Positions 2,083-64,000 of a stretch of 64,000 bases of DNA are shown here, one piece after another. The first letter of the stretch is position 1, and each line of letters starts with the position of its first letter. The stretch is from Puniceicoccales bacterium. GTDB taxonomy: Bacteria > Verrucomicrobiota > Verrucomicrobiia > Opitutales > JAIRLG01. The stretch is from the NCBI GenBank assembly GCA_031288595.1, contig JAITRB010000004.1, forward strand, positions 9,491-73,490. Direction: 5' to 3'. The translations under genes and the position numbers were made by a program. The notes beneath the pieces were generated by a model that did not search any database, was not told the origin of the DNA, and saw nothing but the letters and a program-made list of their open reading frames with translations.

Positions 2083-2140
2083 TCTTCTGGAGAAATATTT
2101 TCTGGAGAAACATTGGGATAGATGGGAAAAGGTGCATCCG

Positions 2141-2248
2141 CGCGCAACGGCCCCCGTCAGAAGGACAGCGAGGCTTCGCTGTCCTTCCGACGGGGCCTTC
2201 CTGCTCCGCAGGAAGGCCTCCTTTGCTTTGCAAAGGGGCCGTTGCGCG
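2141..2248. repeat. Intergenic four-helix palindromic element, variant (type 2) copy
   Basis: A 14-bp outer stem CGCGCAACGGCCCC/GGGGCCGTTGCGCG encloses three hairpins. They are GAAGGACAGCG-loop-CGCTGTCCTTC, GGCCTTCCTGC-TCC-GCAGGAAGGCC and TTTGC-TTT-GCAAA. The first hairpin is built from the type-1 terminal sequences in swapped order. The copy lies between convergent sufD-like and membrane-protein genes. Confidence 0.7.
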
Positions 2249-2281
2249 GAGAAAGCATAAGAGAGCCGAACCGGGACCTTG

Positions 2282-2818: not shown

Positions 2819-3762
2819 GGTGCCCGATACTGAAAGAAGGCACTCAAAATGTCAAAGCTTTCATCAGGGCTCTGCTGGTCCAGGTTCAGCCTTCGGTCGA
2901 TGGGGATCTGATGGCGGAACCAGCTGCGCTGCTTGTGGATCAGTTGCTTCGTGTGCAGGAGAATGTGGGCCTTCAGTATCGCCTCGTCCCTGCATCCGCT
3001 CTGCAGCCATTGCAGGGTTTCTCGGTATCCGATGCTCCGGCCGGCCGGGCCGTTGGGGTTCAGGCCCTGGCGCTGCAATTGCCGGACTTCTTCGACCAGG
3101 CCCTGCGCCAGCATGTCATCGATGCGTCGGGCCGCGCGTTCCTGAAGATTTTCCGCTTCCCGCTCGAGCAGACAGCTGCGTTTTCTCCAGGACTGGAAGA
3201 GCGAAGCTTTCATCTCGAAATTCCTCTGCAATTCCGGAATACTTTGGCCAGAGGCGAGGCATCGGGCCAGGGCTCGCATCACCCGCTGGGGATTGCGAAG
3301 GTCGAGCGTGCCGGTCTGAGGACTGAGCTGGAGTAGTGCCTCCCTTAGGCCTGCAAGTCCGCGGCAGCGGAAGAGCTCGCTCACCTCTTCTCGAATGCCT
3401 GAAGAGATGATGATATCGTCTGTAACGGCTTTGTAAAAGCTTTGGAGATAGAATCCGGAGCCGCCTACGATGAGGACGGGATGGCCGCGGTACTGGATGT
3501 CCGCGATCCTTTCAAGGGCATAGCGCTGATAGCGGTCGACGTCGCACTGTTCGGAAATCGAACAGAAGTCGAGGCCGTGGTGCGGAACCCGGGCCTGTTC
3601 TTCCGGAAGGGGCTTGGCCGTTCCGATGTCCATCCCGCGGTAGACGAGCCGCGAATCACAGGAGAGGATTTCGGCCGAGTATTTTTCGGCAATGCGCAGC
3701 GATAGTTCCGTTTTCCCCATCGCCGTGCAGCCCGTCAAAATCCATAGTTCTGGCTGTTCCAT
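2809..3762 (-). CDS. miaA: tRNA dimethylallyltransferase MiaA
   Basis: P-loop GCTAMGKTELS is followed by SCDSRLVYRGMDIGTAKP. I placed the start at the internal ATG (MEQPELWILTG), which removes the overlap with the upstream lptD-like ORF. Confidence 0.9.
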   Translation of the reverse strand: MEQPELWILTGCTAMGKTELSLRIAEKYSAEILSCDSRLVYRGMDIGTAKPLPEEQARVPHHGLDFCSISEQCDVDRYQRYALERIADIQYRGHPVLIVGGSGFYLQSFYKAVTDDIIISSGIREEVSELFRCRGLAGLREALLQLSPQTGTLDLRNPQRVMRALARCLASGQSIPELQRNFEMKASLFQSWRKRSCLLEREAENLQERAARRIDDMLAQGLVEEVRQLQRQGLNPNGPAGRSIGYRETLQWLQSGCRDEAILKAHILLHTKQLIHKQRSWFRHQIPIDRRLNLDQQSPDESFDILSAFFQYRAPCC

Positions 3763-3766
3763 GAGA

Positions 3767-5923: not shown

Positions 5924-6005
5924 GTTCTGTCACTGTGAATAGGAATCGCTGAAATGGCGACAAGTCCATTTCGTTCTCGAGATGCGGGGAGGGCCAGTGG
6001 CAGGA

Positions 6006-6114
6006 TTTGGCGCCTTTGGAGGCCTTTGGGCTCCGGCCCGCGGCGCGGGCCGCGGCCGAGGGAGAGGGAGAGCTGTCCCAGCTCTCCCTCTCCCTCGGGC
6101 GCAAAGGCGCCAAA
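6006..6114. repeat. Intergenic four-helix palindromic element, type 1 (order a-b-c on + strand)
   Basis: The closing stem is TTTGGCGCCTTTG/CAAAGGCGCCAAA. Arm a is imperfect (GGAGGCC-TTT-GGGCTCC). Arm b is GGCCCGC-GGC-GCGGGCC. Arm c is a perfect 20-bp stem (CCGAGGGAGAGGGAGAGCTG-TCC-CAGCTCTCCCTCTCCCTCGG). It lies in the divergent lptD/recD2 spacer. Confidence 0.85.
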
Positions 6115-6201
6115 CCGAAGAAAGGCGAGGGGCATCGTCCCGTTCTGAGCTTTGGGATTGAAGAGCGCGGGCAGGAGCACAGACTGCTCCCAAAACCTCC
6201 C

Positions 6202-8400
6202 ATGTCCGTCATCGTACAGGGTAATCTGGAACGCATTCTCTTCCGCTGCGAAGAAAATGCCTATATGGTCGGCCGGCTACGCCCATCGGGACCAGAGCAG
6301 GGAGAGGCCGTTGTTTTCTGCGGGACCTTCCCCAGCGTCCAGTGCGGAGAACGGCTTTCCCTAAAGGGTGAGTGGAAGGAACATCCCACCTACGGCCGTC
6401 GTCTGGAGGTAAATGCCTTCGAAGTCCAGCTCCCATCGGACTTATATGGCCTCGAGCGCTATCTGGCGAATGGATTTGCCAGTGGCATTGGCAAATCCTA
6501 TGCCGCGAGAATCGTCCAACATTTCGGTCCCGAGACCTTCGAAGTGCTCTCCCGTGACATCGGCCGCCTGAATGAGGTGCCGGGTATTGGGGCACGGCGG
6601 GTAGCCCTGATACGCAAGGCCTGGGAGGATCAGGTTCAGATGCGCGACCTCTCCATCTTCCTCCAGAGCTACGAAATTTCCCAGTCGCTCTGCCAAAAGC
6701 TCCACAAGACCTATGGCGACCAGGCGCGCTCGGTGCTGGAAAAGGATCCCTATCGCGTCGCTCGCGAGGTCGCGGGCATCGGCTTCAAAACGGCCGACCG
6801 CATGGCCAGGAACCTCGGCATTTCGGACGAAGCCTCGGTGCGTCTGGAGGCCGGACTCTTCTACAGCTTCGAGACGGAGGAAATGAATGGGCATACCTGT
6901 CTCGAGCGCAGTACTTTGATTCACACTGCCCAGAATCTGCTAGGAGTAGGGGAGGATCTCATCGAGGCCCAGCTCGACCTCCTGCAGCAGTACGGTAAAA
7001 TCCATCTCCTTCCCAGTGGCCGTCTGCAGTTGGCACATTTCAAGGTCGCCGAGGAGACGATTGCCTTCCTCTTGAAACGACTCCTACAGAGAAAATCTCC
7101 CTCTCTGGGGACCATCGATGGGGACGCGGCCGTGGCCTGGGCCCAGCGTCGGGAGGGATTCGTCTTCGCCGAGGAACAACTGCTCGGCCTGCGCTCGGCG
7201 CTGACGAAAAAGGTTTCGGTCCTGACCGGTGGGCCCGGGACGGGCAAGACCACGCTGCTGCGCGCCCTGGTCGCCATTCTACGGGCGAAGCACATCGCCG
7301 TCGCCCTGGCCGCCCCTACTGGCCGCGCGGCCCAGCGCCTGGCCGAAGCGACGGGCACTCCGGCCAAAACCATCCACAAGCTCCTGCAATTCCGAACGGA
7401 TGTGGAGGAGCGCCGGTTCATGCACAACGAGGGATGTCCGCTGAACCTGGACTATCTCATCGTGGACGAGATGAGTATGCTCGACACGCGCCTGGCTGCC
7501 TCGCTGCTGCGGGCGGTGCCGGAAACCGCCTGCGTACTCTTTGTCGGAGACAGCGACCAGTTGCCTTCGGTGGGGGCTGGCAATGTCCTCAGCGACCTGA
7601 TGCAATCCGGAGTCCTACCCGTCGTTCGCCTCCGGAAGGTCTTTCGCCAGGACGATGTGAGCTCCATCGTGCACGTGGCCCATGCCGTCATTGCTGGTAA
7701 TACGACCCTGAGCGGGATCAGTGCTGATCTGTCGGCCATCCAGCCTCGGGACGATTTCCATTTCATCCTGGCGGATTCGCCTGAAGATTGCATCGAGAAG
7801 ACGAAGCAGCTCTGCCTGCTCTGCCTACCGAGCTGGTACGACATCTGCCCGCAGCGGGACGTCCAAATCCTGGTCCCCCTCTACAGGGGCAGCGTTGGCA
7901 TCGATCGTTTTAACGAGATCTTTCAGTCTCTCTATGCCCAGGAGGGCACACAGGTGCCTTGGATGCACCTGCGCCTGGGGGACAAGGTGCTCCAGACACG
8001 CAACAACTACGAAAAGGGCATTTTCAACGGTGATCTCGGGTTCATCCGAGAACTACGGGCATCGGAGAGGAAAATCGTCGTGGATTTCGACGGAGGGGAT
8101 GTCGAGCTGGGCGCGGCGGAAATCGGGGATCTCTCCCTGGCCTATGCGATCAGCATTCACAAATCGCAGGGCAGCGAATTCCCCATCGTCGTGATGCCGC
8201 TCCTCTTCCAGCATTTCATCATGCTCCAGCGCAACCTGCTCTACACCGGTATTTCCCGCGGACGCCACAAGGTCTTCATCATCGGTGACCCGAAGGCCTA
8301 TGCGGCAGCCGTCAGAAATCAAGGGAGTGTCCAGCGCTCGACGGGCCTGCAGGATCTCCTTCGCTCGATAGGCTCTCCGTCCGAAGGGCATGGGTCATGA
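6202..8400 (+). CDS. recD2: RecD2-type SF1 ATP-dependent DNA helicase
   Basis: Helicase motifs are present: LTGGPGTGKTT, LIVDEMSMLD, VGDSDQLPSVGAG and AISIHKSQGSEFP. I placed the start at the ATG at 6202 (MSVIVQGNLERI). The track extension from 6007 runs through repeat copy 6006-6114 and is low-complexity. Confidence 0.9.
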   Translation: MSVIVQGNLERILFRCEENAYMVGRLRPSGPEQGEAVVFCGTFPSVQCGERLSLKGEWKEHPTYGRRLEVNAFEVQLPSDLYGLERYLANGFASGIGKSYAARIVQHFGPETFEVLSRDIGRLNEVPGIGARRVALIRKAWEDQVQMRDLSIFLQSYEISQSLCQKLHKTYGDQARSVLEKDPYRVAREVAGIGFKTADRMARNLGISDEASVRLEAGLFYSFETEEMNGHTCLERSTLIHTAQNLLGVGEDLIEAQLDLLQQYGKIHLLPSGRLQLAHFKVAEETIAFLLKRLLQRKSPSLGTIDGDAAVAWAQRREGFVFAEEQLLGLRSALTKKVSVLTGGPGTGKTTLLRALVAILRAKHIAVALAAPTGRAAQRLAEATGTPAKTIHKLLQFRTDVEERRFMHNEGCPLNLDYLIVDEMSMLDTRLAASLLRAVPETACVLFVGDSDQLPSVGAGNVLSDLMQSGVLPVVRLRKVFRQDDVSSIVHVAHAVIAGNTTLSGISADLSAIQPRDDFHFILADSPEDCIEKTKQLCLLCLPSWYDICPQRDVQILVPLYRGSVGIDRFNEIFQSLYAQEGTQVPWMHLRLGDKVLQTRNNYEKGIFNGDLGFIRELRASERKIVVDFDGGDVELGAAEIGDLSLAYAISIHKSQGSEFPIVVMPLLFQHFIMLQRNLLYTGISRGRHKVFIIGDPKAYAAAVRNQGSVQRSTGLQDLLRSIGSPSEGHGS

Positions 8401-10575: not shown

Positions 10576-11856
10576 TCATGACAAACTTAAAATGAGTTTT
10601 TCAAACGTTTTCCCGCGCTCCGCGAAATCCTTGAACTGGTCAAAGCTCGGATAGCCCGGGCTGAAGAGAACGGTGTTGCCCTGTGGCTCGAGCAGAGGAT
10701 GGGCCATGGCATCGTCCAGGGCCCGTTCGAGTGTTTTGGAAAGAGTGGTCATTACACCCCTCTCTTGCAGGAGAGGGGTGAGCACGGCACCCTCCTCGCC
10801 GATGAGGAAGGCATGGGCGACATGGAGATGGATTTCCCGCAAAAATGCCTCTTTGGGCTCTCCCTTATCCCGCCCACCGCCGATCCAGAGGATGGGCGAT
10901 GGGAACTGGCGGAAGGCGGCAATGGTAGAGGCAAAAGTGGTCGACTTGGCATCGTTCCAGAAAGTTCTGTTGTCCCGAGTGATCAGGCGCTGGAGCCGGT
11001 AGGGCAGTGGCTGAAAGCTAAGGGCAGCCCGTAATAAGGTTTCGACGGGCAAGGACCATTGCCGCCAAAACGCCTGGATGAGGGCGATGTTCTCCCTCTG
11101 CGGGGCGAGCTCGAAGACGGTATTTTGCCAGCGCAGGTCATCCCGCACAGGCGGACAGATTTGGGTGAAATCCGGCAGAGTACAGCGGAATTCCCGCGCG
11201 TGCTGGGCCACGCTCTCGCCGCAGAAAAACTGCGAAGTTCTCAGGGAAGAGAGCAGGTGGTATTTCGCCAAAAAGTAGCGCTGCAGGTTGCCGTGCTCAT
11301 GGAGGTGATTGGGCGCAAAATTCGTCCAGAGAAGCGCCTGCAGTGGCGTGCTCCGCATGTGCTCTGCCTGGGCCGAACTGATCTCGCAGATGACCCAATC
11401 CTCCTCGGCTGGCGGACATTCGGAGGCGATGAGCTCCGAAAGGGCCTGGCCGATGTTGCCCGCTGTGAAGCTGCGCAGGCCCAGGGATTGGAGAGCGTGG
11501 GCCAGGAAGGCGACAGTGGTCGTCTTGCCATTGGTCCCCGTGACCCCTATCAGTTTTGCCCGGGTAAAGCGCGAGGCGAAGTCGAACTCCTGAAGACATT
11601 GGCAGCCGGAGCTTTCAGCCAATTGTACCCAGGGGTGCTGGGAGAGAAAGCTCGGGCTGCAGAGGATCAAGCGGTGTTGCCGAGCCCGTTCCTCATCGAA
11701 GAGAAGGGCCCGAGAGGGATTTTGGTCATAGAGCTCGTAGGAGATGCTGTGGCGCTTGAGGAACTGAACGATGCCCCTCGCCGTCACACCGGCCCCGAAG
11801 ATTCCGATAGGGTGGCCACCGGAAATCTGAATAATGCTCTCTCTTGCGTTCGACAT
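10576..11856 (-). CDS. murD: UDP-N-acetylmuramoyl-L-alanine--D-glutamate ligase MurD
   Basis: The N-terminus is Rossmann-like (GIFGAGVTARG). The Mur ligase P-loop GVTGTNGKTTTVAFL is present. The gene sits in dcw context upstream of ftsW. Confidence 0.9.
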   Translation of the reverse strand: MSNARESIIQISGGHPIGIFGAGVTARGIVQFLKRHSISYELYDQNPSRALLFDEERARQHRLILCSPSFLSQHPWVQLAESSGCQCLQEFDFASRFTRAKLIGVTGTNGKTTTVAFLAHALQSLGLRSFTAGNIGQALSELIASECPPAEEDWVICEISSAQAEHMRSTPLQALLWTNFAPNHLHEHGNLQRYFLAKYHLLSSLRTSQFFCGESVAQHAREFRCTLPDFTQICPPVRDDLRWQNTVFELAPQRENIALIQAFWRQWSLPVETLLRAALSFQPLPYRLQRLITRDNRTFWNDAKSTTFASTIAAFRQFPSPILWIGGGRDKGEPKEAFLREIHLHVAHAFLIGEEGAVLTPLLQERGVMTTLSKTLERALDDAMAHPLLEPQGNTVLFSPGYPSFDQFKDFAERGKTFEKLILSLS

Positions 11857-12023
11857 GTCAGCGGGGCAGCTTTCTTTCTATCCTTTAGCCGAGAAAAGGC
11901 AAATTTCAAAGAAGGAGGAAGCCCCGGATTTTTAGAAAAATGCCCCTCGGGACTCTCACAGTTCAGGGGAAAATGTTTGGGAGGATGGAAGGCGGCCATT
12001 GGCATCCGTCCTCGCATGGGCCT

Positions 12024-12602
12024 CTATACGGGATTGCCAAAGCTCTCCGGATGCTCCTCCATATGGAGTTTCAGAGAGAGAAGCGCATGGAGGGTGACGC
12101 CGCTGTCGATGCGGCCATCGCGGACATGGGCCCAGAGCTTTTCCAGGGGGATGGAGCGATAGCTGATCTCTTCCATCGGATCCAGTTGCTGGGGACCGAC
12201 GGAGTGGCACTGGCGGACGAGAACCGTGAAGAGCCGATGCTTGATGAGGGCAGGATTCGGGTAAATTGCCGAGAGGAGCTTGGGTTGAAGGCCGGCATAG
12301 CCCGTTTCCTCCCGTAATTCTCGGGCCGCTGCGGTGAGAGGGTCCTCATCGGGATCCACGATCCCGCCCGGGAGTTCCAGCGAGAGGCATTTGCTTGCGA
12401 AGCGAAACTGTTGCACGAGCAGGATTTCTTCCCCCGGTGTCAGGGCGATGACCTGGACGCAGTCCGGGCATTCCAGGGTGAAGAAATCGCCTTCCCGACC
12501 ATCTGTCGGATGGATGCAGTGTTCGCTGTAAGCTTTGAAAACAGGGATATCGGCGATCAATTGGCGCCGAGCGACCCTCCAGATGGCGGGAGGATGAGAC
12601 AT
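12024..12602 (-). CDS. Nudix hydrolase (ADP-ribose pyrophosphatase-like)
   Basis: The Nudix box is GGIVDPDEDPLTAAARELREETGY. Confidence 0.8.
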   Translation of the reverse strand: MSHPPAIWRVARRQLIADIPVFKAYSEHCIHPTDGREGDFFTLECPDCVQVIALTPGEEILLVQQFRFASKCLSLELPGGIVDPDEDPLTAAARELREETGYAGLQPKLLSAIYPNPALIKHRLFTVLVRQCHSVGPQQLDPMEEISYRSIPLEKLWAHVRDGRIDSGVTLHALLSLKLHMEEHPESFGNPV

Positions 12603-12680
12603 GGCCGAGAGGAGATGGGATCCTCCCGAGCTCTGTCAATCGTCGGTGAGGGAAAAATGATCATGGGCTTGGTTTGTGCA

Positions 12681-12792
12681 GCGCGATGACCCCTTTGCGA
12701 AGCAAAGGGGAAGACAGGCATCTCGCCGGGGCGAGATGCCTGTCTTCCGGTGGGAGCCCGAATGACCTTCGGGCTCCCACCGGTCATCGCGC
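12681..12792. repeat. Intergenic four-helix palindromic element, variant (type 2) copy
   Basis: The outer stem GCGCGATGACC/GGTCATCGCGC encloses three hairpins. They are CCCCTTTGC-GAA-GCAAAGGGG, a 17-bp GAAGACAGGCATCTCGC-CGGG-GCGAGATGCCTGTCTTC, and GGTGGGAGCCC-11 nt-GGGCTCCCACC. The copy lies in the divergent nudix/accA spacer. It is followed by AAAAAAACACCTCC, the same tail as copy 48459-48555. Confidence 0.7.
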
Positions 12793-12942
12793 AAAAAAAC
12801 ACCTCCACTACAGCACTTCTCCCCTTCCCCAAAACAGATCATCCATAACAAAACATCCTCATTTTTCAGTTGCTGTGCTCCTGTCGACCCCTTGGATGCC
12901 CCTCCGACCTTCGGAAAGAGGATCGATACTTGGAGATCTGAA

Positions 12943-13884
12943 ATGAGTCCGGACAAAATACTCCTGGAAAAATCCGAACCCTGCGTCTGGAATCCATCTG
13001 AGGCATCCCTCGCTGAGAGGGAGACACCTCCCTTCAGTGCCTGGGAGAATGTACGGCTCGCACGGCATCCGGAGCGGCCACAGGCTTTGGATTTCATCCA
13101 TGCACTTTTCGAAAACTTTCAGGAACTGCACGGCGATCGCCATTTCGGTGACGACGGCGCGATGCTGGCCGGCACGGCCTATTTTCAGGGCGAGCCGGTG
13201 ATGCTCATCGGGGAACAGAAGGGGCGTACGATCCAGGAAAAGCTGAAGCACCGCTTCGGCTCTCCCCAAGCGGAGGGTTACAGAAAAGCGCTGCGCCTGA
13301 TGCAGCTGGCCGACAGATTTCATCTGCCCATCGTCAGCTTCGTCGACAGCCCGGGTGCCTACCCAGGTATCGGGTCGGAGGAACGCCATGTCGCCGAGGC
13401 CATCGCGCTCAATTTAAGGGAGATGATGGGATTCTCCGTCCCCATCATCGCCATTGTGATCGGCGAGGGCGGTTCCGGTGGTGCCCTGGGCATCGCTGTG
13501 GCCGACCGCGTCCTGGTTTTGGAACATGCTTATTACTCGGTCATCTCCCCCGAGGCCTGTGCGGCTATTTTGTGGCGGGACCGTTCCCTCGCGCCGGAGG
13601 CGGCGGAGGCCCTCCAGCTCTCATCCGAACATCTCACTACCTGGGGGGTGGCGGACGAAATTATTGCCGAGAGCTCCGAGGCTGCCCATGTAAGCCCAAC
13701 CGAGAGTTTCGAAGCTGTCAGGACAGCATTGCTCAAATGTCTTGCCGAAGTCTCGGCCTGGCCAGCCGAGGAGCGAATGGAACGGCGCTATCGGCGCTTC
13801 CGCGCCCTGGGATGCTATGCCTCTAAGGATTACCCAGATTTTCAGGAAATCGGGAGGAAGAGCCCTGACTCCCCTGGGAACTAA
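12943..13884 (+). CDS. accA: Acetyl-CoA carboxylase carboxyltransferase alpha subunit AccA
   Basis: The sequence RLARHPERPQALDFI...HGDRHFGDDGAMLAGTAYFQGEPVMLIGEQKGR and SFVDSPGAYPG matches AccA. The track ORF starts at TTG 12892, and the first in-frame ATG is 12943. Confidence 0.9.
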   Translation: MSPDKILLEKSEPCVWNPSEASLAERETPPFSAWENVRLARHPERPQALDFIHALFENFQELHGDRHFGDDGAMLAGTAYFQGEPVMLIGEQKGRTIQEKLKHRFGSPQAEGYRKALRLMQLADRFHLPIVSFVDSPGAYPGIGSEERHVAEAIALNLREMMGFSVPIIAIVIGEGGSGGALGIAVADRVLVLEHAYYSVISPEACAAILWRDRSLAPEAAEALQLSSEHLTTWGVADEIIAESSEAAHVSPTESFEAVRTALLKCLAEVSAWPAEERMERRYRRFRALGCYASKDYPDFQEIGRKSPDSPGN

Positions 13885-18516: not shown

Positions 18517-18853
18517 ACGACACAGTCCTCGGCGGAAAATTTTCGCTACACCAAGCCCTTCCGGAAGGGTAAAATCAACGCCCATTTGTCAAGGGAGAAT
18601 GCGCCCAGCACCTCATCCCAGAGAAATAGAGCTGAAGGGGTTCTTGAGTGATGTGATTGAGGCTGCTTGACCTATTTTGAAATGGACAGCCATTCCGCTC
18701 TGTGGGCGAGCCCTTCCAGCCAGGGAGACCGGAGACGCGTTCCCTGGAGAGAAGAGAGAAATTCCTCCCTCCTGATTCCCCAAGGCACTGAGGCGCTCGC
18801 GAAAAAAGATTTGCCAGTTTTAAAATACAGAATAAATGTGGCGGGAGAGCAAA

Positions 18854-20209
18854 ATGAGCCCTCAAGATTTTTCCTCACCCCAGAAGGCTTCCATGAGCCC
18901 TAGGACGACACCCGCCAGGGACTTGAAGGACGATGTCCGCCAGACCTTTCTCTACTGGCGTTCCCGCATTTTGTATGCCCTGATCCTCGGCTACACCACG
19001 TTCTACATCGTGCGGCAGAATTTTCAAGTAGCGGCCCCTTCGATGCTGCACGAGCTGGGCTATACCCGCTGTCAGATTGGCTGGGCCTTCAGCTCCTTCG
19101 CCCTCATCTACGGCCTCGGGAAATTCATCAGCGGTGTGATCTGTGACCGCACGAGTGCCCGCTATTTCATGGTCATCGGCCTCCTGGGAGCCTCTCTCTG
19201 CAGCCTGCTCATCGGCTGCAGCCATTCCATCACCCTGCTGGCGCTATTCTACGCACTCAATGGGGTCTTCCAGTCGATGGGTTGGCCCCCCGTCGCCCGC
19301 CTGATGGTCCACTGGTACTCACCTCGAGACTTGGGGACGCACTGGGGAATCGTCAATGCCTCCCATCAGGTCGGCAGTGTCATCATCCTGCTCGGAGGTT
19401 CTTGGCTACTCATCCACTGGGGTTGGCGGTCGGTCTTCATCCTTCCGGCGGGGCTGGCTCTTCTCATCTCGGCTGTTCTCTTCCAACGCCTGCGCGACAT
19501 TCCCGAATCCATGGGATTGCCCTCCATCGAGGAGATGGAGGGTCTAGATCCTAGCTCCGGCCATGAGGAAGGCGAGAGCGTGACCCTGCGCGAGATTCTC
19601 CTGGAGCACATCCTGCCCAATCCCTCGCTGTGGTACGTCTGCTGTGCCAATTTCTTCCTCTATATCGTCCGCATGGGATTCTTCAACTGGGCACCCACCT
19701 TTCTGCAGGAGGCACGAGGTGCTTCGGTCATGATGTCCGGAGTTCAGTCCATGGGGTTTGAGCTGATGGGGGCTCTGGGAGGGGTCTTTGCCGGCTGGGT
19801 TTCGGACAAGTTCCTGCAGGGGAAACGGAACCGCGCCTGTGTCTATTTCACGTCAGCACTGATCGTCGTCCTGCTCCTCTTCTGGTGGCTGCCGTTACGG
19901 TCAACGGCCCTGAATACGCTATTCCTCTTCATCCTAGGCTTTCTGGTCTACGGCCCCCAGATGCTGGCGGGTTGCGCTGGAGCGGAGTTCGGCTCCAAAC
20001 GGGCAGCCGCCGCCGGCAATGGACTGACCGGTCTTTTCGGTTACCTCGGGGCTGCGTTCTCCGGTTGGGGAATTGGAAAAATCGTCGATGTCTGGGGATG
20101 GAATGCGATGATCCTCTTCTTTTCGCTCTGCACTGCTATCAGCATGGGATTCTTCATGCTCAACGGCCAACAGGCGAGGAAGAAACTCAGAGTAGCTCAA
20201 GGGAAATAG
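18854..20209 (+). CDS. MFS organophosphate:phosphate antiporter (UhpC/GlpT family)
   Basis: Twelve TM segments are predicted. An OPA-family signature is present (FYIVRQNFQVAAPSM...GWAFSSFALIYGLGKFISGVICDR). I prefer the second ATG at 18854 because GGGAGAG lies upstream. An alternative ATG is at 18836. Confidence 0.8.
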   Translation: MSPQDFSSPQKASMSPRTTPARDLKDDVRQTFLYWRSRILYALILGYTTFYIVRQNFQVAAPSMLHELGYTRCQIGWAFSSFALIYGLGKFISGVICDRTSARYFMVIGLLGASLCSLLIGCSHSITLLALFYALNGVFQSMGWPPVARLMVHWYSPRDLGTHWGIVNASHQVGSVIILLGGSWLLIHWGWRSVFILPAGLALLISAVLFQRLRDIPESMGLPSIEEMEGLDPSSGHEEGESVTLREILLEHILPNPSLWYVCCANFFLYIVRMGFFNWAPTFLQEARGASVMMSGVQSMGFELMGALGGVFAGWVSDKFLQGKRNRACVYFTSALIVVLLLFWWLPLRSTALNTLFLFILGFLVYGPQMLAGCAGAEFGSKRAAAAGNGLTGLFGYLGAAFSGWGIGKIVDVWGWNAMILFFSLCTAISMGFFMLNGQQARKKLRVAQGK

Positions 20210-28675: not shown

Positions 28676-28847
28676 GACCTTTTCGGGCGGATAGATGCTG
28701 AGGATAGGTATCGCACCGGGGAGGAGATCTATCGGGAAGCGAGGAGGGGCGATCCCTGCACTTCCGGTGCGCCCTTTGTCCCCATGGGGAATCGCTTTGC
28801 CCGGGGGACAGAAACTTGGCCCGGGCTCAGGGTTCCCTGGGCTTGTG

Positions 28848-28958
28848 TTTTTGGGGGCTGTCTTTGCCGCGGGAGGAATGAAAGGGAATTTTTCATTCCT
28901 CTCGCGGGGGCCCGCTTCGCGGGCGAGCCCTCCGGGCTCCAAAGACAGCCCCCAAAAA
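28848..28958. repeat. Intergenic four-helix palindromic element, type 1 (c-b-a)
   Basis: The 19-bp closing stem is TTTTTGGGGGCTGTCTTTG/CAAAGACAGCCCCCAAAAA. Arm c is 16 bp (CGCGGGAGGAATGAAA...TTTCATTCCTCTCGCG) with one G:T on the + strand. Arm b is GCCCGC-TTC-GCGGGC. Arm a is GAGCCC-TCC-GGGCTC. It lies between the adk-like gene and prfA. Confidence 0.85.
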
Positions 28959-29082
28959 TTTCCACCGAGACCGAGATGGACCTGCCCGCAGCATACCCTA
29001 TCCTTCCCTTCGTCCTAAACCCGCTCAGCACTTGACGAAAAGAGCCCAGTCCCTTAAAGCTCAGGGGATTCACGGATGAGCC

Positions 29083-30174
29083 ATGGCCCCAATTCCGAGC
29101 ATCGATCCATTCCGCCGCCGCCATGAGGATTTGGAAAGGGCGATGGCGGAAGCGGGCTTTTTTTCCGACCCACGCCAGGCTGCCTGTATCGCGAAGGAAC
29201 ACCAGCAATTGGCCCAGCTCCTGGAAAAATACAGCCGCTACGAACGGCGGCAGTCCGAACTGGCCGATTGCCAGCGCCTCTTGGATGAATCGGAGGGAGA
29301 TGGTGAGCTGAAGGCTTTGGCCGAGGAGGAACGGCAACGGATTCTGGAAGAAGTGGAACAGCTCGAACAGGCAATTCTGCTGGACATGATCCCACAGGAA
29401 TCCTCGGATTCGCGCCATACGGTCATGGAAATTCGGGCCGGTACAGGCGGAGACGAGGCGAGCCTGTTTGCCGGCGATCTCTTTCGCCTCTATATGCGCT
29501 ACGCAGAACGGAGGGGCTGGCAGCTGGAACTGCTCAGCTCCAGCCCATCGGCCTGTGGCGGATTCAAGGAGATCATCTTTCTGATTCGCGGAGAAGGGGC
29601 CTACCGCCATCTGAAACTGGAGAGCGGTGGACATCGGGTACAGCGCATCCCCGCTACTGAAGCCAATGGGCGCATCCATACCTCGGCGGCAACGGTGGCC
29701 GTTCTGCCGGAGGCGGAAGAGGTGGACATTCAAATCGCGCCGGAGGATTTGGAAATTTCCATCTGCCGGGCCAGTGGCCCTGGGGGCCAGGGGGTGAACA
29801 CGACCGATTCGGCCGTCCAGATTCTTCATCGCCCGAGCGGGATGATCGTCTACTGTGCAGATGAGCGCTCTCAGCAGAAGAACCGGGCAAAGGCGATGAC
29901 TGTTCTGCGCTCACGGCTCCTGCAGAAGAGGGAGGAGGAGGAACGGGCCCAGTATGCGGCGGTTCGCAAGCGACAGGTAGGTACCGGCGACCGTTCCGAA
30001 CGCATCCGGACCTATAACTTTCCCCAAAACCGCCTGACGGACCACCGCATCGGCCTGACGCTCTACACCTTGCCCCAGATCATGGATGGGGATCTGGATA
30101 CCCTGCTGGAGGCATTGGAACTGGCCGACCGGCGGGCAAAAATTCAGGCCCTACTGGAGAAGGAACCCGCATGA
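29083..30174 (+). CDS. prfA: Peptide chain release factor 1
   Basis: The GGQ motif is present (SGPGGQGVNTTDSAV). The RF1-type tripeptide P-A-T is present (RIPATEANGRIHTS). Confidence 0.95.
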   Translation: MAPIPSIDPFRRRHEDLERAMAEAGFFSDPRQAACIAKEHQQLAQLLEKYSRYERRQSELADCQRLLDESEGDGELKALAEEERQRILEEVEQLEQAILLDMIPQESSDSRHTVMEIRAGTGGDEASLFAGDLFRLYMRYAERRGWQLELLSSSPSACGGFKEIIFLIRGEGAYRHLKLESGGHRVQRIPATEANGRIHTSAATVAVLPEAEEVDIQIAPEDLEISICRASGPGGQGVNTTDSAVQILHRPSGMIVYCADERSQQKNRAKAMTVLRSRLLQKREEEERAQYAAVRKRQVGTGDRSERIRTYNFPQNRLTDHRIGLTLYTLPQIMDGDLDTLLEALELADRRAKIQALLEKEPA

Positions 30175-46629: not shown

Positions 46630-47178
46630 GAAGCTCTGACCAATGCGAAGTCTTCCAAAAGGTCAATTTTTCTTTCGGGAGATGAAAAATCCAGCGGCAA
46701 AAATACCTCGCAGCAGTGGTGTTCATCCCTCGGATCCCTCAGTCATTCCGCTTCATCCGGTGAATCCGCCAGCAGCCGGCATCGGCTCTGTTATCACTCA
46801 GAAGCTCTCCGAGCCCCTCCACCTCAGCTCGAAGACCGTTCCGACATCCTCTACGTCCATCCAAGCCAGTCGCGCTGTGTCCCTCCAGGCTTGAGATCTG
46901 GGGCTAGAAAAACCGGAGTGAGCCCTTAGCGCCGCTGCCGACGGAAGAGCTCCCGATCGCTTGTGAATCGCGAGCCTATCGTCTGCTGGACCGTAGATTG
47001 GCCTTCTACGTATCCTACAAGTTTTATCCTGAAGTTCAACGCCGTTTGGCTCCTGGAGAATGGAGGAATGCTTTCCCGAGCTCGATTTTCCGGGGGAGGA
47101 TAAAAAAGAACTCGAGGACATTGACCGCTAGCTCTGGCTTGTGTTCGGATACATTTTTCCTTTAATAGGAAGGTGAGT

Positions 47179-48414
47179 ATGGGCGTATTTTACTACGAGG
47201 TTCTCGATCGGGCGAAAGGGAAGGAAAGCGGCACGCTGGAGGCGAACGACAAGAAACAGGCCGTACAGCTGCTGATCCAAAAAGGCTGGCATGTCCTCGT
47301 TCTGAAGGAAAAAAAGTTCCGTGTGAAACGCGCCCAGATGAAACACCCAGGCGTGCCTGCGCTGGGCCGCTTCTGGGTCAATAAGCAGAAGATCCACTTC
47401 AATTTTCTCTACAAATTCCTGCAGCTGCACAGCGGGGGACTATCCCCTGGAGATGCGCTGAAGGTCATGCGCACCCGCCTAAAATCACCGGCGGAACAGG
47501 CGCTGGCCGAGGCGGTACATAAGCAGCTCTGCGAGGGTAAAACATTGGCAACAGCCATGAAGCTCTATCCGGATATTTTTCCCGAGGGCACGGTTTACAT
47601 GATCGAGGCCGGCGAAAAGACCGGAAACCTCATCCCTATTATCGGTAATTTGATCCGCTTCATGGAGGTGCAGGCAGAGGTGAAGAAGCGCTTCATCGCA
47701 GGGATATCCTATCCGCTCCTGGTCTGTAGTATCGCGATGGCAGTGGTGGTCCTGTTCATCTTCTACCTCCTGCCGCGAATCCAGAAGATGATGACTTCGA
47801 TGGGTGGAGAATTGCCCCTGCTAACCCGTCTTCTCCTGGGAGGGGCGCACTTTCTCCAGGACTGGGGGCTCTCCATCCTCGCCATCATCGGCGTCGGCAG
47901 CCTTGCTCTCCTGCGCTTCCGCCAGACGGCGATGGGCCGCGTGTGGACGGACCGCTGGCTGACCTATTTACCGCTCCTGAGGGGCATCGTCAACGGCTCC
48001 TACTACTGCCAGACGGCGAATCTGCTGGCTACGCTTTTAGGGAGTGGCATCAATACCACCGAGGCCATGCAGCTGGCCGAACAGGCTACGTCGAACCGCT
48101 ACCACCGCCTGCACTTCGCCGAGGCGCGGCGCAAGGTCCTGGATGGCGTGGCCATAACCCAGGCCTTCGACAAGCACCATGTGCTTCCGGTGGAGGCACT
48201 GGATATCCTCTCGGTCGGGGAAAACACAGGTGACCTGGCCTCCTCCTTCCGGGAGATCTTTAAAATCCACAACGGCGAGCTGAGCGAGAAGCTGCACTCC
48301 CTAACGGTGACGGTTTCCTCCATCGCCCTGGGCTTCGCCTTCTCTCTGGTCGCCATCCTAGCCATGAGCATCGTCATGAGCGTCATGAAGTTCAGTGCGA
48401 CAGTGGTGGGCTAG
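47179..48414 (+). CDS. gspF: Type II secretion / type IV pilus platform protein (GspF/PilC family)
   Basis: The N-terminus MGVFYYEVLDRAKGKESGTLEANDKKQAVQLL is typical of the family. Two T2SSF repeats and 3 TM segments are present. The ATG at 47179 is preceded by GGAAGG. The track start at 47173 is GTG. Confidence 0.8.
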   Translation: MGVFYYEVLDRAKGKESGTLEANDKKQAVQLLIQKGWHVLVLKEKKFRVKRAQMKHPGVPALGRFWVNKQKIHFNFLYKFLQLHSGGLSPGDALKVMRTRLKSPAEQALAEAVHKQLCEGKTLATAMKLYPDIFPEGTVYMIEAGEKTGNLIPIIGNLIRFMEVQAEVKKRFIAGISYPLLVCSIAMAVVVLFIFYLLPRIQKMMTSMGGELPLLTRLLLGGAHFLQDWGLSILAIIGVGSLALLRFRQTAMGRVWTDRWLTYLPLLRGIVNGSYYCQTANLLATLLGSGINTTEAMQLAEQATSNRYHRLHFAEARRKVLDGVAITQAFDKHHVLPVEALDILSVGENTGDLASSFREIFKIHNGELSEKLHSLTVTVSSIALGFAFSLVAILAMSIVMSVMKFSATVVG

Positions 48415-60316: not shown

Positions 60317-60646
60317 TCAGCGAGCGCAAGCTGTGCCTTTTGCTTTCCCTGTCAAGAAGAGAGACCTGTCCCTGCGCATTCTAACTAAATGGAGAAAATG
60401 AGCTTGTACTTTACTCGAACAAATCATTCAGAATAAGCTTTGCAATAGAAGATTCACGGTGGAGTTGTGCGAAAATATCCAGGCGCATTTAGGGAAACTT
60501 GCGATTGGAAAGAAGGGTGGCGCGCTCATAAAATGTACAATTTTCCCGGAGAACGGGTAGAATCGAGAAATGGCATTGTCTTGACGGAAGAACTTCCTTG
60601 TTTTTCTGGAAAATACAACGGAATAGCAAAACGGCGAGAGGAAGCG

Positions 60647-61273
60647 ATGAAAACAGGAGCAGGGTCATATTTCCAAAATAAGGCCGAGGAAGAGGATGAG
60701 GAGGAAGAGAGGCCCGTGCCGGAGGCGGCGGCGGCCATGATCCAGAAATGTTTCCTTCAGGAGAGAAAGATCTTTCTCTGGGGCAGAATCGACGATGCAT
60801 CGGCGAAGGATGTGACGGAAAAGATGCTCTATCTGGAGCTGAAGGAGCCGGGCAAACCCATCCAGTTCTTCATCGATACGCCCGGGGGCTCGGTCACCTC
60901 CGGCATGGCGATCTACGACACGATGCAGTTGATCCGCTCGCCCATTCAGGTCGTCGTCACGGGATTAGCGGCCAGCATGGGATCCATCCTCCTGTCGGGA
61001 GCGCCCAAGGGCCAGCGCCTGTTGTACCCGAGTGCTCGGGTTCTGATCCATCAACCTTTGATCGCGGGGCGCTTCCGGGCCCAGGCTGTCGACATCCACA
61101 TCCAGGCGCAGGAGATGGAGAAGACCCGCGACGAGTGCAACCGCATCCTGGCTGCGGCTTCCGGTCAGCCACTGGAGAAAATCCAAAGAGATACGGATCG
61201 CGACTTCTACATGAACGCCAAAGAGGCCATTGCCTATGGTCTGGCCGACGCCATCGTCGAACGCCTGTGGTGA
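60647..61273 (+). CDS. clpP: ATP-dependent Clp protease proteolytic subunit ClpP, with acidic N-terminal extension
   Basis: The catalytic Ser context is TGLAASMGS and the His context is LIHQP. The ATG at 60647 is preceded by GAGAGGAAG. The track extension from 60467 is not supported. Confidence 0.9.
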   Translation: MKTGAGSYFQNKAEEEDEEEERPVPEAAAAMIQKCFLQERKIFLWGRIDDASAKDVTEKMLYLELKEPGKPIQFFIDTPGGSVTSGMAIYDTMQLIRSPIQVVVTGLAASMGSILLSGAPKGQRLLYPSARVLIHQPLIAGRFRAQAVDIHIQAQEMEKTRDECNRILAAASGQPLEKIQRDTDRDFYMNAKEAIAYGLADAIVERLW

Positions 61274-61297
61274 TGTGGTAATTCGATGGCGAGAAGC

Positions 61298-61327
61298 TGA
61301 GACTTTGGGGAGTGAGACTTTGGGGAG
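61298..61327. repeat. Tandem direct repeat, 2 x 15 nt (TGAGACTTTGGGGAG)
   Basis: I read two exact adjacent copies directly from the sequence. They lie 25 nt downstream of the clpP stop. Confidence 0.9.
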
Positions 61328-61381
61328 CTTTTTCACGAAGCCCAGAGGCTCGTCCTAAATCTGAGGGAAAAGCATAGCCGC

Positions 61382-61413
61382 CACGAGAATAATCTGTCAC
61401 GAGAATAATCTGT
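61382..61413. repeat. Tandem direct repeat, 2 x 16 nt (CACGAGAATAATCTGT)
   Basis: Two exact adjacent copies lie in the lower-GC convergent clpP/sctU spacer. Confidence 0.9.
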
Positions 61414-61522
61414 CGACACCCAGAAAATCCTTCTCGCCCAGTTGCGGAGAGGAGAAACACGACAGAGAGGAAAAATACGAAATAATCGCATCCACTCCAC
61501 GCATCCATGCGCCCATACCAGA

Positions 61523-61538
61523 CATAATATATATTATG
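61523..61538. repeat. Perfect 16-nt AT-rich palindrome CATAATATATATTATG
   Basis: I read it directly from the sequence. It is the most AT-rich spot of the window. Confidence 0.9.
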
Positions 61539-61665
61539 CGAAATGGATTTAAGGGCCTCCACCGCAACAGCTTTGCGCCGAAGCCCACTCTGGGGACTCC
61601 GGGTACAGGACCCTGCTTCGGGACTGGCTGCTCAGCACCATGGGATTGATCTGAGGCGTCTCTCC

Positions 61666-62748
61666 CTACTCCGCTTCTCCTTCCAATTCTAGGCCTTGGG
61701 CATGGCGTCCGCGAGAGATGTAGACCCAGCGCAGAACTTCGGCCACCGGTTCCATAAGCTCCCGGGGGATATACTCCAGAACCGTGCCCATGTCCATCAG
61801 CGCATGGGCGAGCGGTACATGGCGCATGATGGGAATACCCTCTTCCCGAGCAATGGCGATCATGCGTTCCGCCACAAGACCTATGCCCTTGGCCAGGACA
61901 AGGGGGAAGGGACATACCTGCTTTTCCGGTTCGTAGAGCAGGGCGATGGCGATATGAGACGGATTGCTCACGAGCACACTTGCTCCCCTCGTCCGCTGGG
62001 GGGGATCCTGCTCGATCATCTCGCGGTGGATCTGCTTCCGCTTGCTCTTGATCTGGGGATCGCCCTCGGATTCCTTGTACTCCCGCTTCACCTCATCCTT
62101 GCTCATCTTGAGCTGGTTCATCCAGTTGCGCCGCTGGAAGACATAGTCCGCTACGGCGAAGAGGACATAGACGAAGATGACGCTATTGGAAAAGCGCTTC
62201 AGAACCGCAGGCAGCAGCTCCATGACGCCCTCGATGCCGCTCAGTGGCAGTACGAGCAGGTCGCGGATGACATCTTTGATGACGAGGAAGATGAGGATCG
62301 AGAGGCAGAGGATCTTGATGATCGATTTCCCGAGCTCGAAGAGATTTTTTTTGGAAAAAATCTGTTTCAGCTTCGAGGCAGGATTGATCCGGTTGAGATC
62401 AGGTTTCAGGGGTTGCGTCGTGAAGAGCACGCCCACCTGGGCGAAATTGGCCACCAGGGCTAGCAGGACGACCACCCCTCCCACCGCCAGGATGATGGAG
62501 AGCATCTGCCAGAGAATGTCCCAGAGGATCGCCTCATAGGTCTCGTCGAAATCTCTCGCGAAGAAATAGGATGGGATGAGGAGGAGTTGGCAGAGTTTTT
62601 GGAAGATCTCTTCCCAGTTCATACTGATGTAGCTGAAGAGACCGATGACGAGAACGGCTGAGTTGAGATCCGTACTCTTGGCGACATTGCCCTTAGCCCG
62701 CGCATCGCGGAGACGCTTGGGGGAAGGCGCTTCGGTCTTCTCGCTCAT
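61666..62748 (-). CDS. sctU: Type III secretion export apparatus switch protein SctU (YscU/FlhB family, injectisome-like)
   Basis: The N-terminus MSEKTEAPSPKRLRDARAKGNVAKS is closer to YscU (KKLRDARKKGQVVKS) than to FlhB. There are 4 TM segments. The autocleavage site variant is NPSH (VLVSNPSHIAIAL). The start overlaps the sctT stop as ATGA. Confidence 0.85.
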   Translation of the reverse strand: MSEKTEAPSPKRLRDARAKGNVAKSTDLNSAVLVIGLFSYISMNWEEIFQKLCQLLLIPSYFFARDFDETYEAILWDILWQMLSIILAVGGVVVLLALVANFAQVGVLFTTQPLKPDLNRINPASKLKQIFSKKNLFELGKSIIKILCLSILIFLVIKDVIRDLLVLPLSGIEGVMELLPAVLKRFSNSVIFVYVLFAVADYVFQRRNWMNQLKMSKDEVKREYKESEGDPQIKSKRKQIHREMIEQDPPQRTRGASVLVSNPSHIAIALLYEPEKQVCPFPLVLAKGIGLVAERMIAIAREEGIPIMRHVPLAHALMDMGTVLEYIPRELMEPVAEVLRWVYISRGRHAQGLELEGEAE

Positions 62749-63539
62749 AGCTGAAAGAAATGGTTGATGAACTGAGCCATCTTGCCCTTGCCGTAGAAAT
62801 AGTGCCGGAAGAGCTGACCCAGGAAGGAGAAGTAGAGCAGCAGGAAGAACATCGACAGCCAGCTCTTGATCGGCATCGCCAGGACGAAGACATTGAGCTG
62901 CGGCGCGAAGCGGCTCACCATGCCCAGGCCGAATTCCGCCAGAAATAGGACGATCAGCACCGGCGCGCAGAGACAGAAGCTCACCTCCATCAGCTCATCG
63001 GCGAAGAGCAGGAAGTAGCGTGAGAGATCCGATTCTATGGTGATTGTCAGCTGAAAGACCGGCCAGATCTCGTAGGTCTTGTAGATCAGCATCATGAAGA
63101 ATAGAAATCCACCGGTGGAGAAGAAGAACACGGTCAGCATTTGGAGGAGAAAGCTGCCCAGGAGAGAGGTCTGGGTACCGGCAATCGCGTCGAAGGTGGT
63201 GGCCATGGAGGCCCCACGCTGGATGTCGATGATGAAACCGACGCTTTCCCCGACGAAGAAGATGAAGGTGCCCACAAAACCCAGCATCAGGCCGATCACG
63301 ACCTCCTTGAAGAGGATCGCGAAGAGCATCAGCAGGGGCAGTTCCTCTTTAGGGAGGGCAGGATAGAGGAAGTAGAAGAGCGGCAGTGCCATGCCCAGGA
63401 TGATCGCGTTGCGCCCCGTTCCGACGATGAACTGCTTGGAGAAGACGGGGATGATGCTCAGGGCAGCGGCCAGGCGGACGATGGAGATGAGGAGTAGGAA
63501 GCAGATACGGGTCAACTCACTCAGGGCCAAAGAATCCAT
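62745..63539 (-). CDS. sctT: Type III secretion export apparatus protein SctT (YscT/FliR family)
   Basis: The ORF is 264 aa and polytopic. It sits between sctS and sctU. The N-terminus ICFLLLISIVRLAAALSIIPVFS is typical of the family. Confidence 0.8.
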   Translation of the reverse strand: MDSLALSELTRICFLLLISIVRLAAALSIIPVFSKQFIVGTGRNAIILGMALPLFYFLYPALPKEELPLLMLFAILFKEVVIGLMLGFVGTFIFFVGESVGFIIDIQRGASMATTFDAIAGTQTSLLGSFLLQMLTVFFFSTGGFLFFMMLIYKTYEIWPVFQLTITIESDLSRYFLLFADELMEVSFCLCAPVLIVLFLAEFGLGMVSRFAPQLNVFVLAMPIKSWLSMFFLLLYFSFLGQLFRHYFYGKGKMAQFINHFFQL

Positions 63540-63551
63540 CGCCGCTGTCGC

Positions 63552-63824
63552 TTATTTCTTGATCAGGATGGAAAAGGTCGAGAAGAGCTGGTCGGCGAAG
63601 CGCAGCAATTGTCCCCCGATCCAATAGGAAGATAGGGAGAGGATGATGACGATGCAGAAGAGCTTGATGGCGAAGCCTAAAGTCTGTTCCTGTATCTGCG
63701 TCAGAGCCTGGATGAGGCTCATGCCAAGACCTACAAAGGTCGCCACGAGGATCGGCGGCATGCTCAGCATGAGCACCAGGATCATCGCCTGCGCCGTCAA
63801 ATTGATGATGTCGCTCTGATTCAT
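63552..63824 (-). CDS. sctS: Type III secretion export apparatus protein SctS (YscS/FliQ family, injectisome-like)
   Basis: The sequence MNQSDIINLTAQAMILVLMLSMPPILVATFVGLGMSLIQALTQIQEQTLGFAIKL matches the YscS pattern (SMPP..LVA, SL.QALTQIQEQTLGF), not the FliQ pattern (QAATQINEMTLSF). The start is set at ATG 63824. The track start at 63836 is TTG. Confidence 0.88.
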   Translation of the reverse strand: MNQSDIINLTAQAMILVLMLSMPPILVATFVGLGMSLIQALTQIQEQTLGFAIKLFCIVIILSLSSYWIGGQLLRFADQLFSTFSILIKK

Positions 63825-64000
63825 CACATCCCCCAAATCCTCCGAGACCAGTGGTCAGTGTAGTGCCCTTGGGTAAATGTTCAAGCTTCCTTTCAGTCTT
63901 CAGCCTCCCTGGAGATTTTCAGCTCTTCGGAGATTCTCCGGCTCTTTCAAGTTTTCGCTTCAATTTTTTGGAAGTATTTTTTCTTGGCGCGATGGCCCCT

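Follow-up and report, generated by a model that had tools for sequence, protein, structure and literature searches.

Isolated sctS-sctT-sctU genes among housekeeping genes in Puniceicoccales: a likely fragment of a scattered Ysc-like injectisome

Introduction

Why should three genes for the export gate of a type III secretion system (T3SS) sit alone among housekeeping genes? The question is raised by the end of a 64,000-nt stretch of DNA (hereafter the window) from a Puniceicoccales bacterium of the phylum Verrucomicrobiota (GenBank assembly GCA_031288595.1, contig JAITRB010000004.1, positions 9,491–73,490), which carries sctS, sctT and sctU. An earlier note, made from the letters of the window, described these genes as an isolated, injectisome-type operon. 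SctS, SctT and SctU are three of the five inner-membrane proteins of the export gate, and SctR is indispensable for a gate that contains SctS and SctT. The comparisons described below make it likely that the triad is a piece of a Ysc-like injectisome, the genes of which are scattered order-wide among housekeeping genes in a termite-gut lineage of Puniceicoccales.

Results

The three genes belong to injectisome families

All three type III export-gate ORFs (open reading frames) described by the earlier note are present, on the minus strand, which the note had not given:

61666–62748, minus strand: sctU, 360 aa, switch/autoprotease subunit of the FlhB/SctU family
62745–63539, minus strand: sctT, 264 aa, export-gate subunit of the FliR/SctT family
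63552–63824, minus strand: sctS, 90 aa from an ATG, export-gate subunit of the FliQ/SctS family with two hydrophobic helices

The listed ORF of sctS runs further 5ʹ, to a TTG at 63836; on an identical 2.4-kb contig (L001), the same 90-aa SctS product is called. The sctS stop is separated from the sctT start by 12 nt, and the sctT stop and sctU start overlap as ATGA, as had been read earlier, at 62745–62748. Hydrophobic segments span residues 6–44 and 44–74 of SctS, and there are at least six in SctT. The peptides quoted in the earlier note (SMPPILVA, SLIQALTQIQEQTLGF and KRLRDARAKGNVAKS) are all present. The products match PF01313 (Bac_export_3; SctS, 4e-23), PF01311 (Bac_export_1; SctT, 2e-50) and PF01312 (Bac_export_2; SctU, 1e-105).

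NCBIfam equivalog models with curated cut-offs were used to separate injectisome from flagellar proteins. SctS scored 96.5 with TIGR01403 (cut-off 76.5; model positions 1–80 of 81), SctT scored 196.9 with TIGR01401 (cut-off 163.05; model positions 5–234 of 253), and SctU scored 384 with TIGR01404 (cut-off 358; model positions 1–338 of 341). The scores with the flagellar models were below the cut-offs in each case: 72.4 against 88.9 for SctS (FliQ, TIGR01402), 125.2 against 168.6 for SctT (FliR), and 304.2 against 349.25 for SctU (FlhB). Hence, the earlier assignment to a non-flagellar system is upheld for every gene. Furthermore, SctS, SctT and SctU are 54, 37 and 47% identical to the injectisome proteins of Prosthecobacter, as compared with 32, 28 and 33% for a flagellar FliQ/FliR/FlhB set. 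The best solved relative of SctT is SpaR (104 bits, with FliR at 66 bits or less), and the C-terminal domain of SctU aligns with YscU at 114 bits as compared with 45 bits for the C-terminal domain of FlhB. The NCBI pipeline already names the orthologues in related metagenome-assembled genomes (MAGs) SctS, SctT and SctU. As judged by these comparisons, the proteins encoded in the window are orthodox members of the three families.

Could the genes nonetheless be flagellar fliQ, fliR and flhB? Full-length SctU matches FlhB somewhat better than SpaS among PDB structures (149 versus 136 bits), and in one relative the second gene upstream of the triad is FliO-like. Set against this are the failed flagellar cut-offs and the lower identity to the flagellar set. 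In addition, the SctV of related genomes (see below) passes the SctV model, fails the FlhA model and is accompanied by SctX, SctY and TyeA, and the loci of the clade revealed no flagellar gene. We conclude that a flagellar identity is hardly credible.

The triad stands alone in the window

Pfam searches covered 34 window ORFs: the ten largest, 20 of mid-size, clpP and the three sct genes. Among the 31 that are not sct genes, 29 matched housekeeping families only and two had no hit. No other T3SS core gene was found in the window by tblastn with Prosthecobacter SctJ, SctK, SctL, SctN, SctO, SctP, SctQ and SctR, Robbsia proteins, flagellar FlhA, and SctW, SctX and SctY from the clade. Together, these results show that the description of the triad as isolated among housekeeping genes is correct. 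As the earlier note also stated, the gene downstream of sctU is a convergent clpP (60467–61273), and there is no sctV in the window, where the FlhA query found nothing.

The note had further observed that the 164 nt upstream of sctS do not encode the C-terminus of an SctR. Indeed, this sequence has stops in all three frames, one of which reads ...KKLKRKLERAGESPKS*. Extending the sequence did not place sctR directly upstream: contig L001 continues for 57 nt beyond the window and has no SctR-coding sequence there, and sctR is absent from up to 9 kb in the closest relative and from up to 10 kb, or to the contig end, in 30 other genomes.

The triad is conserved across the order and under purifying selection

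In a homologue search, the best matches to SctU, from 92% down to about 47% identity, are nearly all labelled “Puniceicoccales bacterium”. A scan of species-representative genomes found the triad in 31 loci from Puniceicoccales/Opitutia MAGs, whose SctU proteins span 47–92% identity to that of the window. The order S-T-U is the same and the genes are contiguous in all 31 genomes; two apparent exceptions are contig ends that truncate the locus. The flanking genes differ, with at least six distinct neighbourhoods: clpP and two genes of unknown function in the 92% relative (L002); hisS and a 5ʹ-3ʹ exonuclease gene; trmD-rplS-(FliO-like)-prmC and marC; a deaminase gene, a Mu-like prophage and pheT; tsaE and ksgA; and comM. 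We found no homologues of SctR, SctN, SctQ, SctJ or SctL beside the triad in the flanks fetched from the 31 genomes (up to 10 kb), and no conserved unknown genes that neighbour it across lineages.

The closest relatives of the window organism are MAGs from the guts of lower termites. The MAGs of the clade have accessions from JAIR.. to JAIT.. and sample codes that include Pcl387, Gsp477, Nm470 and Roe453; both place them in the collection of MAGs from termite guts published by Mies et al. 2024 (PMC11257099). Two of the codes stand for lower termites there, Pcl387 for Procryptotermes leewardensis and Gsp477 for a species of Glyptotermes. The earlier note had suggested a host-associated organism of the Planctomycetes-Verrucomicrobia-Chlamydiae (PVC) superphylum. 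The PVC placement holds, and the guts of flagellate-bearing lower termites as the source of the relatives fit a host-associated life. A UhpC/GlpT-type antiporter that the note had listed in support holds at the level of the family: this major facilitator superfamily (MFS) transporter belongs to the organophosphate:phosphate antiporter group, and its scores with the PgtP, UhpC and GlpT models are all below the cut-offs.

Is the triad simply left over from a T3SS that has decayed, being non-functional or kept only transiently? Such a relic would account for the failure to find sctR and most of the core genes, and for the position of the triad alone among housekeeping genes. Comparison with the orthologues of the 92% relative, at a synonymous divergence (dS) of 0.25–0.38, gives ratios of nonsynonymous to synonymous divergence (dN/dS) of 0.026 for sctS, 0.082 for sctT and 0.10 for sctU. 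Thus, the full-length, frame-intact genes are under strong purifying selection. The triad is intact in 31 species, and SctV, SctW, SctX and SctY are kept in the clade, on the same contigs. A relic is accordingly a quite unlikely explanation, and the combination of low dN/dS and conservation in 31 genomes leads us to count a decaying one as ruled out.

Relatives carry a second, separate unit with sctV

A flagellar FlhA query matched an Opitutales MAG (L037) whose SctU is 56% identical to that of the window. In this genome, a second unit lies 7 kb from S-T-U, divergent and upstream, with comM, a 358-aa gene, and genes for TyeA, a SycN-like protein, SctX, SctY and SctV in that order. SctV scores 904 with TIGR01399 (cut-off 692) and is below the cut-off for FlhA; SctX scores 51.7 with TIGR02502 (cut-off 30) and SctY scores 70.2 with NF052415 (cut-off 70). 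In L037 and a further relative, L046, TyeA scores 34.7 with its Pfam model (cut-off 21.1), and the SycN-like gene is below its cut-off. SctX, SctY, a YopN/TyeA gatekeeper and a SycN-like protein beside sctV are a hallmark of Ysc-type systems, which was found in these two relatives and not in the window. The comM gene of L037 may be co-transcribed with the gatekeeper unit:

L037 5409–6929, minus strand: comM/Mg-chelatase-like gene, between the divergent sctS-T-U and sctW...sctV, directly upstream of sctW and on the same strand

With the L037 SctV as query, about 35 proteins labelled SctV were found from Puniceicoccales. One of them (P0460) is encoded in a W-SycN-X-Y-V unit among clpB, ferredoxin, PAP2, thyA, folA and lpxK genes, at 70.7–72.8 kb on a contig of 159,084 nt. 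The S-T-U triad of Gsp477_bin29 is at about 143 kb on a contig of 159,084 nt. The two records are probably one contig, which would place the units about 55–70 kb apart, depending on orientation. Three more SctU/SctV pairs come from records whose longest contigs are equal in length (756,918, 37,531 and 9,350 nt). Moreover, the SctU subclades A (which includes the window), B, C and D mirror the SctV subclades V2, V3, V1 and V4/5, respectively; they correspond in their sizes, in their relative distances and in the pattern of their sources. This mirroring suggests that the five V2 proteins are probably the SctV of the window lineage. Hence, the earlier claim that the T3SS is split is borne out in relatives, which hold sctV with sctW/tyeA, sctX and sctY at a separate locus.

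The SctV of the clade aligns with Yersinia LcrD at 822 bits, as compared with 468 bits for SsaV and 417 bits for FlhA. Its C-terminal domain alone gives 401 bits with the Yersinia protein and 318 bits with a chlamydial LcrD-like chain. By these scores, the system of the clade is Ysc-like.

The variety of neighbourhoods could also mean that the triad is a recent horizontal fragment or a mobile cassette. The flanks vary by lineage and a Mu-like prophage adjoins the triad in one; in the window, there are tandem duplications in the spacer between sctU and clpP, and a palindrome lies upstream. On the other hand, GC content and third-position GC content (GC3) match those of host genes (GC3 of 0.75–0.83 for the triad and 0.67–0.76 for neighbouring housekeeping genes), and there was no sign of an integrase, a transposase or boundary repeats. 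The nearest homologues from outside the clade are only about 50% identical, and the SctU and SctV subclades mirror each other, as vertical descent predicts. A solitary gspF/pilC-like gene elsewhere in the window points to general scrambling of gene order. We consider a mobile origin very unlikely.

The autocleavage loop of SctU is expected to be competent

The NP(T)H loop of the window SctU reads NPSH:

61954–61965, minus strand: codons for N262-P263-S264-H265 of SctU (AAT CCG TCT CAT)

The earlier note had singled out this motif as a departure from the canonical NPTH. The motif is indeed present, but it is not a distinctive anomaly, since the third position varies freely in the clade. In a survey of 120 SctU homologues, the four closest relatives of the window protein have NPAH, about fifty members in two main subclades have NPEH, deep-branching Puniceicoccales and most outgroups have NPTH, and the window protein and two others have NPSH. 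The third residue is subclade-specific, being A, E, T or S and rarely Q, G, D or K (homologues P0001–P0072). Eight of the 120 gave no match to NPxH; all the others retain N, P and H. For HrcU (PMC3040844), both cleavage and secretion are lost in N264A and change only a little in T266A. Given the retention of N, P and H and the mild effect of T266A in HrcU, the NPSH loop is expected to be competent for cleavage. We considered NPSH as the mark of a defective or special switch and rejected this idea because of the variation at the third position in the clade and the HrcU data. The third residue, which varies between S, A, E and T under purifying selection, amounts to a natural mutational scan of the SctU loop.

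Expression signals and a possible mode of action

Two candidate expression signals lie upstream of sctS:

63838–63843, minus strand: GGAGGA, Shine-Dalgarno-like, ending 13 nt before the sctS ATG
63857–63884, minus strand: candidate promoter TTGAAC-N16-TACACT, matching 8 of 12 consensus positions

The candidate promoter sits in a 39-nt block with four differences from the 92% relative; the flanks of this block diverge, and synonymous divergence is about 0.3. Since the upstream gene of that relative is encoded on the other strand, transcription of the triad in that genome requires a promoter of its own. We found no upstream motif common to triads across the order beyond the closest relative. Judging from the 12 nt between sctS and sctT and the overlap of sctT with sctU, the triad is probably transcribed as one unit and its translation coupled. 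Hence, the arrangement of the genes points to a compact mini-operon that is probably translationally coupled.

If the proteins act as their families do, SctS and SctT would join SctR in a helical SctR5S4T1 channel. One SctU would wrap this channel, with an SctV nonamer beneath it. The cytoplasmic domain of SctU would cleave itself between N262 and P263, and this would let export change over from early substrates to late ones. Access of substrates would be controlled by the SctV nonamer together with the SctX/SctY assembly factors and the SctW/TyeA gatekeeper.

Discussion

Of the core set sctC, sctJ, sctN, sctQ, sctR, sctS, sctT, sctU and sctV, the window holds S, T and U, and relatives hold V at the triad locus or probably on its contig. 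A scattered injectisome would imply that the lineage also has sctR, sctN, sctQ, sctJ and sctC, that it secretes proteins, and that it has a target host. Several points weigh against this view. The sctR, sctN, sctQ, sctJ, sctC, sctD and needle genes of the clade were not located in the window and fetched flanks, and other lineages saturated the wider searches. That the two 159,084-nt records are one contig is judged from their equal length and shared project, not from overlapping sequence. SctV in the window’s own genome is proposed only from the subclade correspondence, and a look-up of P0479, the best SctV candidate for the window lineage, returned no locus. Finally, the candidate promoter is weak and was not listed by a consensus scan.

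The searches for SctR illustrate the saturation. With Prosthecobacter SctR as query, the top 120 homologues listed were all at least about 60% identical and none was from Puniceicoccales. In a profile search of representatives at 50% identity, the 30 of 150 proteins that were named came from Dyella, Succinatimonas, Paracoccus, Bdellovibrionota and other groups, again with none from Puniceicoccales. A FliO-FliP fusion found in the SctR search was rejected as part of an ordinary flagellar cluster. An ATPase fragment near S-T-U in L009/L010 was rejected as SctN since its C-terminus is that of Rho. SctN-like tblastn matches in L005, L030 and L034 were weak (about 27–30% identity), and the match in L005 is in an annotated F1 ATP-synthase subunit gene; these too were set aside. 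A metagenome scan with the likely SctV of the window lineage had a best match of 57% identity in a collection that does not include the termite samples.

The missing parts bring up another explanation, that the gate serves a type III derivative without a secretin or needle, which would export proteins to the periplasm or surface rather than inject them into eukaryotic cells. Some Myxococcales systems have been suggested to be derivatives of this type. None of the fetched loci of the clade yielded a gene for a secretin, needle, translocon or sorting platform, and the documented parts (S, T, U, V, W, X and Y) are confined to the inner membrane and the gatekeeper. Against this, SctX, SctY, the YopN/TyeA gatekeeper and SycN-like proteins regulate the release of translocators and effectors in complete Ysc injectisomes, and one lineage has a gene for a CesT-family effector chaperone in the vicinity of S-T-U. 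Moreover, because the genes are scattered, absence from stretches of about 20 kb says little. We regard a derivative of this kind as improbable, and a Ysc-like injectisome scattered among housekeeping genes as the better account of the triad.

How does the proposed system compare with known ones? In Yersinia and Pseudomonas, yscRSTU ends the yscN-U operon, yopN-tyeA-sycN-yscX-yscY-yscV form another operon, and the Ysc genes make up a continuous cluster on a plasmid or island. The Puniceicoccales genes are from the same families, S, T and U follow one another in the same order and overlap or nearly abut, and the gatekeeper-SycN-X-Y-V order recurs in relatives; the SctV of the clade is nearest to Yersinia LcrD, and the C-terminal domain of the window SctU is nearest to YscU. 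In contrast to the Ysc arrangement, the triad is separated from sctR and sctN-Q, and its distance to the W-X-Y-V unit, which is found among housekeeping genes, ranges from 7 kb to probably more than 55 kb. The proteins are about 45–50% identical, and the SctU of the clade has NPSH, NPAH or NPEH rather than NPTH. The injectisome of the Prosthecobacter/Verrucomicrobium type, from the same phylum and with the same families (54, 37 and 47% identity for S, T and U), is encoded in one contiguous block, sctD...J-K-L-N-O-P-Q-R-S-T-U, which is broken up in Puniceicoccales. The flagellar FliP/FliQ/FliR/FlhB gate shares the superfamily and the Pfam families, but the window proteins are just 28–33% identical to it and below its cut-offs.

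A parallel in gene organization is known from Chlamydiae, where T3SS genes are in four clusters, termed a “pathogenicity archipelago” (bioRxiv 10.64898/2026.05.06.723290). The two groups are alike in that both are PVC lineages associated with hosts and both have injectisome genes dispersed over several clusters. They differ in how the genes are partitioned, with U beside S and T, and V beside W, X and Y, in Puniceicoccales. In C. trachomatis, cdsU is with cdsV and copN, and cdsR-S-T are with cdsJ/L. The SctV sequence of Puniceicoccales is, furthermore, Ysc-like. Thus, the chlamydia-style dispersal suggested by the earlier note is correct in that the genes are split over loci, and fails in the partition and in the sequences. 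The different partition and the Ysc-like sequences suggest that dispersal was probably independent of Chlamydiae.

A more specific proposal can be made, and we put it forward tentatively, as something short of an even chance: the Puniceicoccales genes are a second, independent PVC “pathogenicity archipelago”. This would be a fully functional Ysc-type injectisome that has been atomised order-wide into mini-operons among housekeeping genes, with sctR detached from sctSTU and, in at least one lineage, a FliO-like assembly factor retained beside the gate genes. Its users, with gut flagellates as targets, would be termite-gut Puniceicoccales, among or next to which belongs the “Nucleococcus cluster”. 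The latter comprises verrucomicrobial endosymbionts of protists in termite guts (PMC8204192).

What is the significance of a scattered injectisome? Our data point to an undescribed injectisome-bearing lineage among termite-gut Verrucomicrobia and suggest that these bacteria manipulate eukaryotic cells, most plausibly gut flagellates. Full-text searches for literature that links Puniceicoccales, Puniceicoccaceae, Opitutae or Opitutales to type III secretion returned nothing relevant. The break-up of injectisome clusters into small, separately placed units would not be unique to Chlamydiae. This bears on how stoichiometric assembly is regulated without operon linkage. As a practical matter, cluster-based tools such as TXSScan will under-call systems whose units are scattered.

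Other features of the window and of related loci

Features outside the triad that are mentioned above are as follows:

window 18836–20209, plus strand: MFS transporter, organophosphate:phosphate antiporter group, with best matches to PgtP, UhpC and GlpT
window 47173–48414, plus strand: lone GspF/PilC-like gene between topA and thrS (PF00482; 202 bits with the GspF model, below the cut-off of 424)
window 60467–61273, plus strand: clpP, convergent with sctU
window 61274–61665: 392-nt spacer between sctU and clpP, the 3ʹ boundary of the sct operon
L005 7750–8058, plus strand: FliO-family gene (PF04347; 38.7 bits, above 22), second gene upstream of sctS (gene order trmD-rplS-fliO-like-prmC-sctS)
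L005 18081–18578, minus strand: CesT-family type III chaperone gene (24.1 bits, above 22), 7 kb downstream of sctU

FliO is regarded as specific to flagella. The GspF/PilC-like gene has no other gene of a type II secretion system or type IV pilus near it; it is a second solitary machine gene in the window, which suggests genome-wide scrambling of operons.

Besides those of the MFS transporter and the GspF/PilC-like gene, the housekeeping Pfam families found in the window are SufBD, MiaA, LptD, RecD2, FtsW, a LysM protein, Mur ligase, NUDIX, AccA, IF-2, ClpB/C, PNPase, GlgC, Adk, TilS, FtsH, BioY, an ATP-binding cassette (ABC) exporter, PrmA, Rpe, LptE, a BamD-like tetratricopeptide repeat protein, TopA, ThrRS, an Rce1-like protease, an ABC ATPase and ClpP. 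About ten further ORFs, such as those for RecA, NusA, RecR, FabH, PlsX, TrxB, RuvB and IleRS, were named by eye only. The two ORFs without a Pfam family have coding-like GC3 and are both on the minus strand (28729–29829, 366 aa, and 2282–2818, 178 aa). Rfam identified a single tRNA in the window and had no match in the sct region.

As listed, clpP encodes 268 aa from a GTG, with about 90 residues ahead of the Clp domain; the orthologue in the 92% relative has 225 aa, and the true start is probably further downstream. In the spacer between clpP and sctU, no terminator-like site or hairpin was found. The spacer has two perfect tandem duplications, one of 15 nt at 61298–61327 (TGAGACTTTGGGGAG, twice) and one of 16 nt at 61382–61413 (CACGAGAATAATCTGT, twice). 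At the other side of the triad, positions 1–24 of contig L001, which are 33–56 nt past window position 64000 and at the contig end, form a perfect 24-nt palindrome (TTGCCCGCTCCGCGGAGCGGGCAA). The palindrome could act as terminator for a gene further upstream, or it could be a repeat at which the assembly breaks off.

A few observations were made near the triad in other lineages. In a deep-branching Puniceicoccales MAG (L009/L010, positions 1–6500), the Mu-like prophage, with portal, terminase and Mu protease genes, is about 2.4 kb upstream of sctS. In L003, a 617-aa gene directly 3ʹ of sctU (11106–12959, minus strand) has a sub-threshold ankyrin-repeat signal (E ~1e-3) and an adjoining 701-aa paralogue. 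Ankyrin proteins are typical effectors that target eukaryotes; there is a faint hint in this signal that the 617-aa protein may be one. Lastly, a 309-aa family without a Pfam hit is encoded in one genome some 7 kb past sctV, on its downstream side (L046 19493–20422, minus strand), and in three others of the same subclade about 4–9 kb downstream of S-T-U (L041 15402–16070, L043 20320–21069 and L022 7525–8283; 24–32% identity), and could be a paralogous effector or accessory family.

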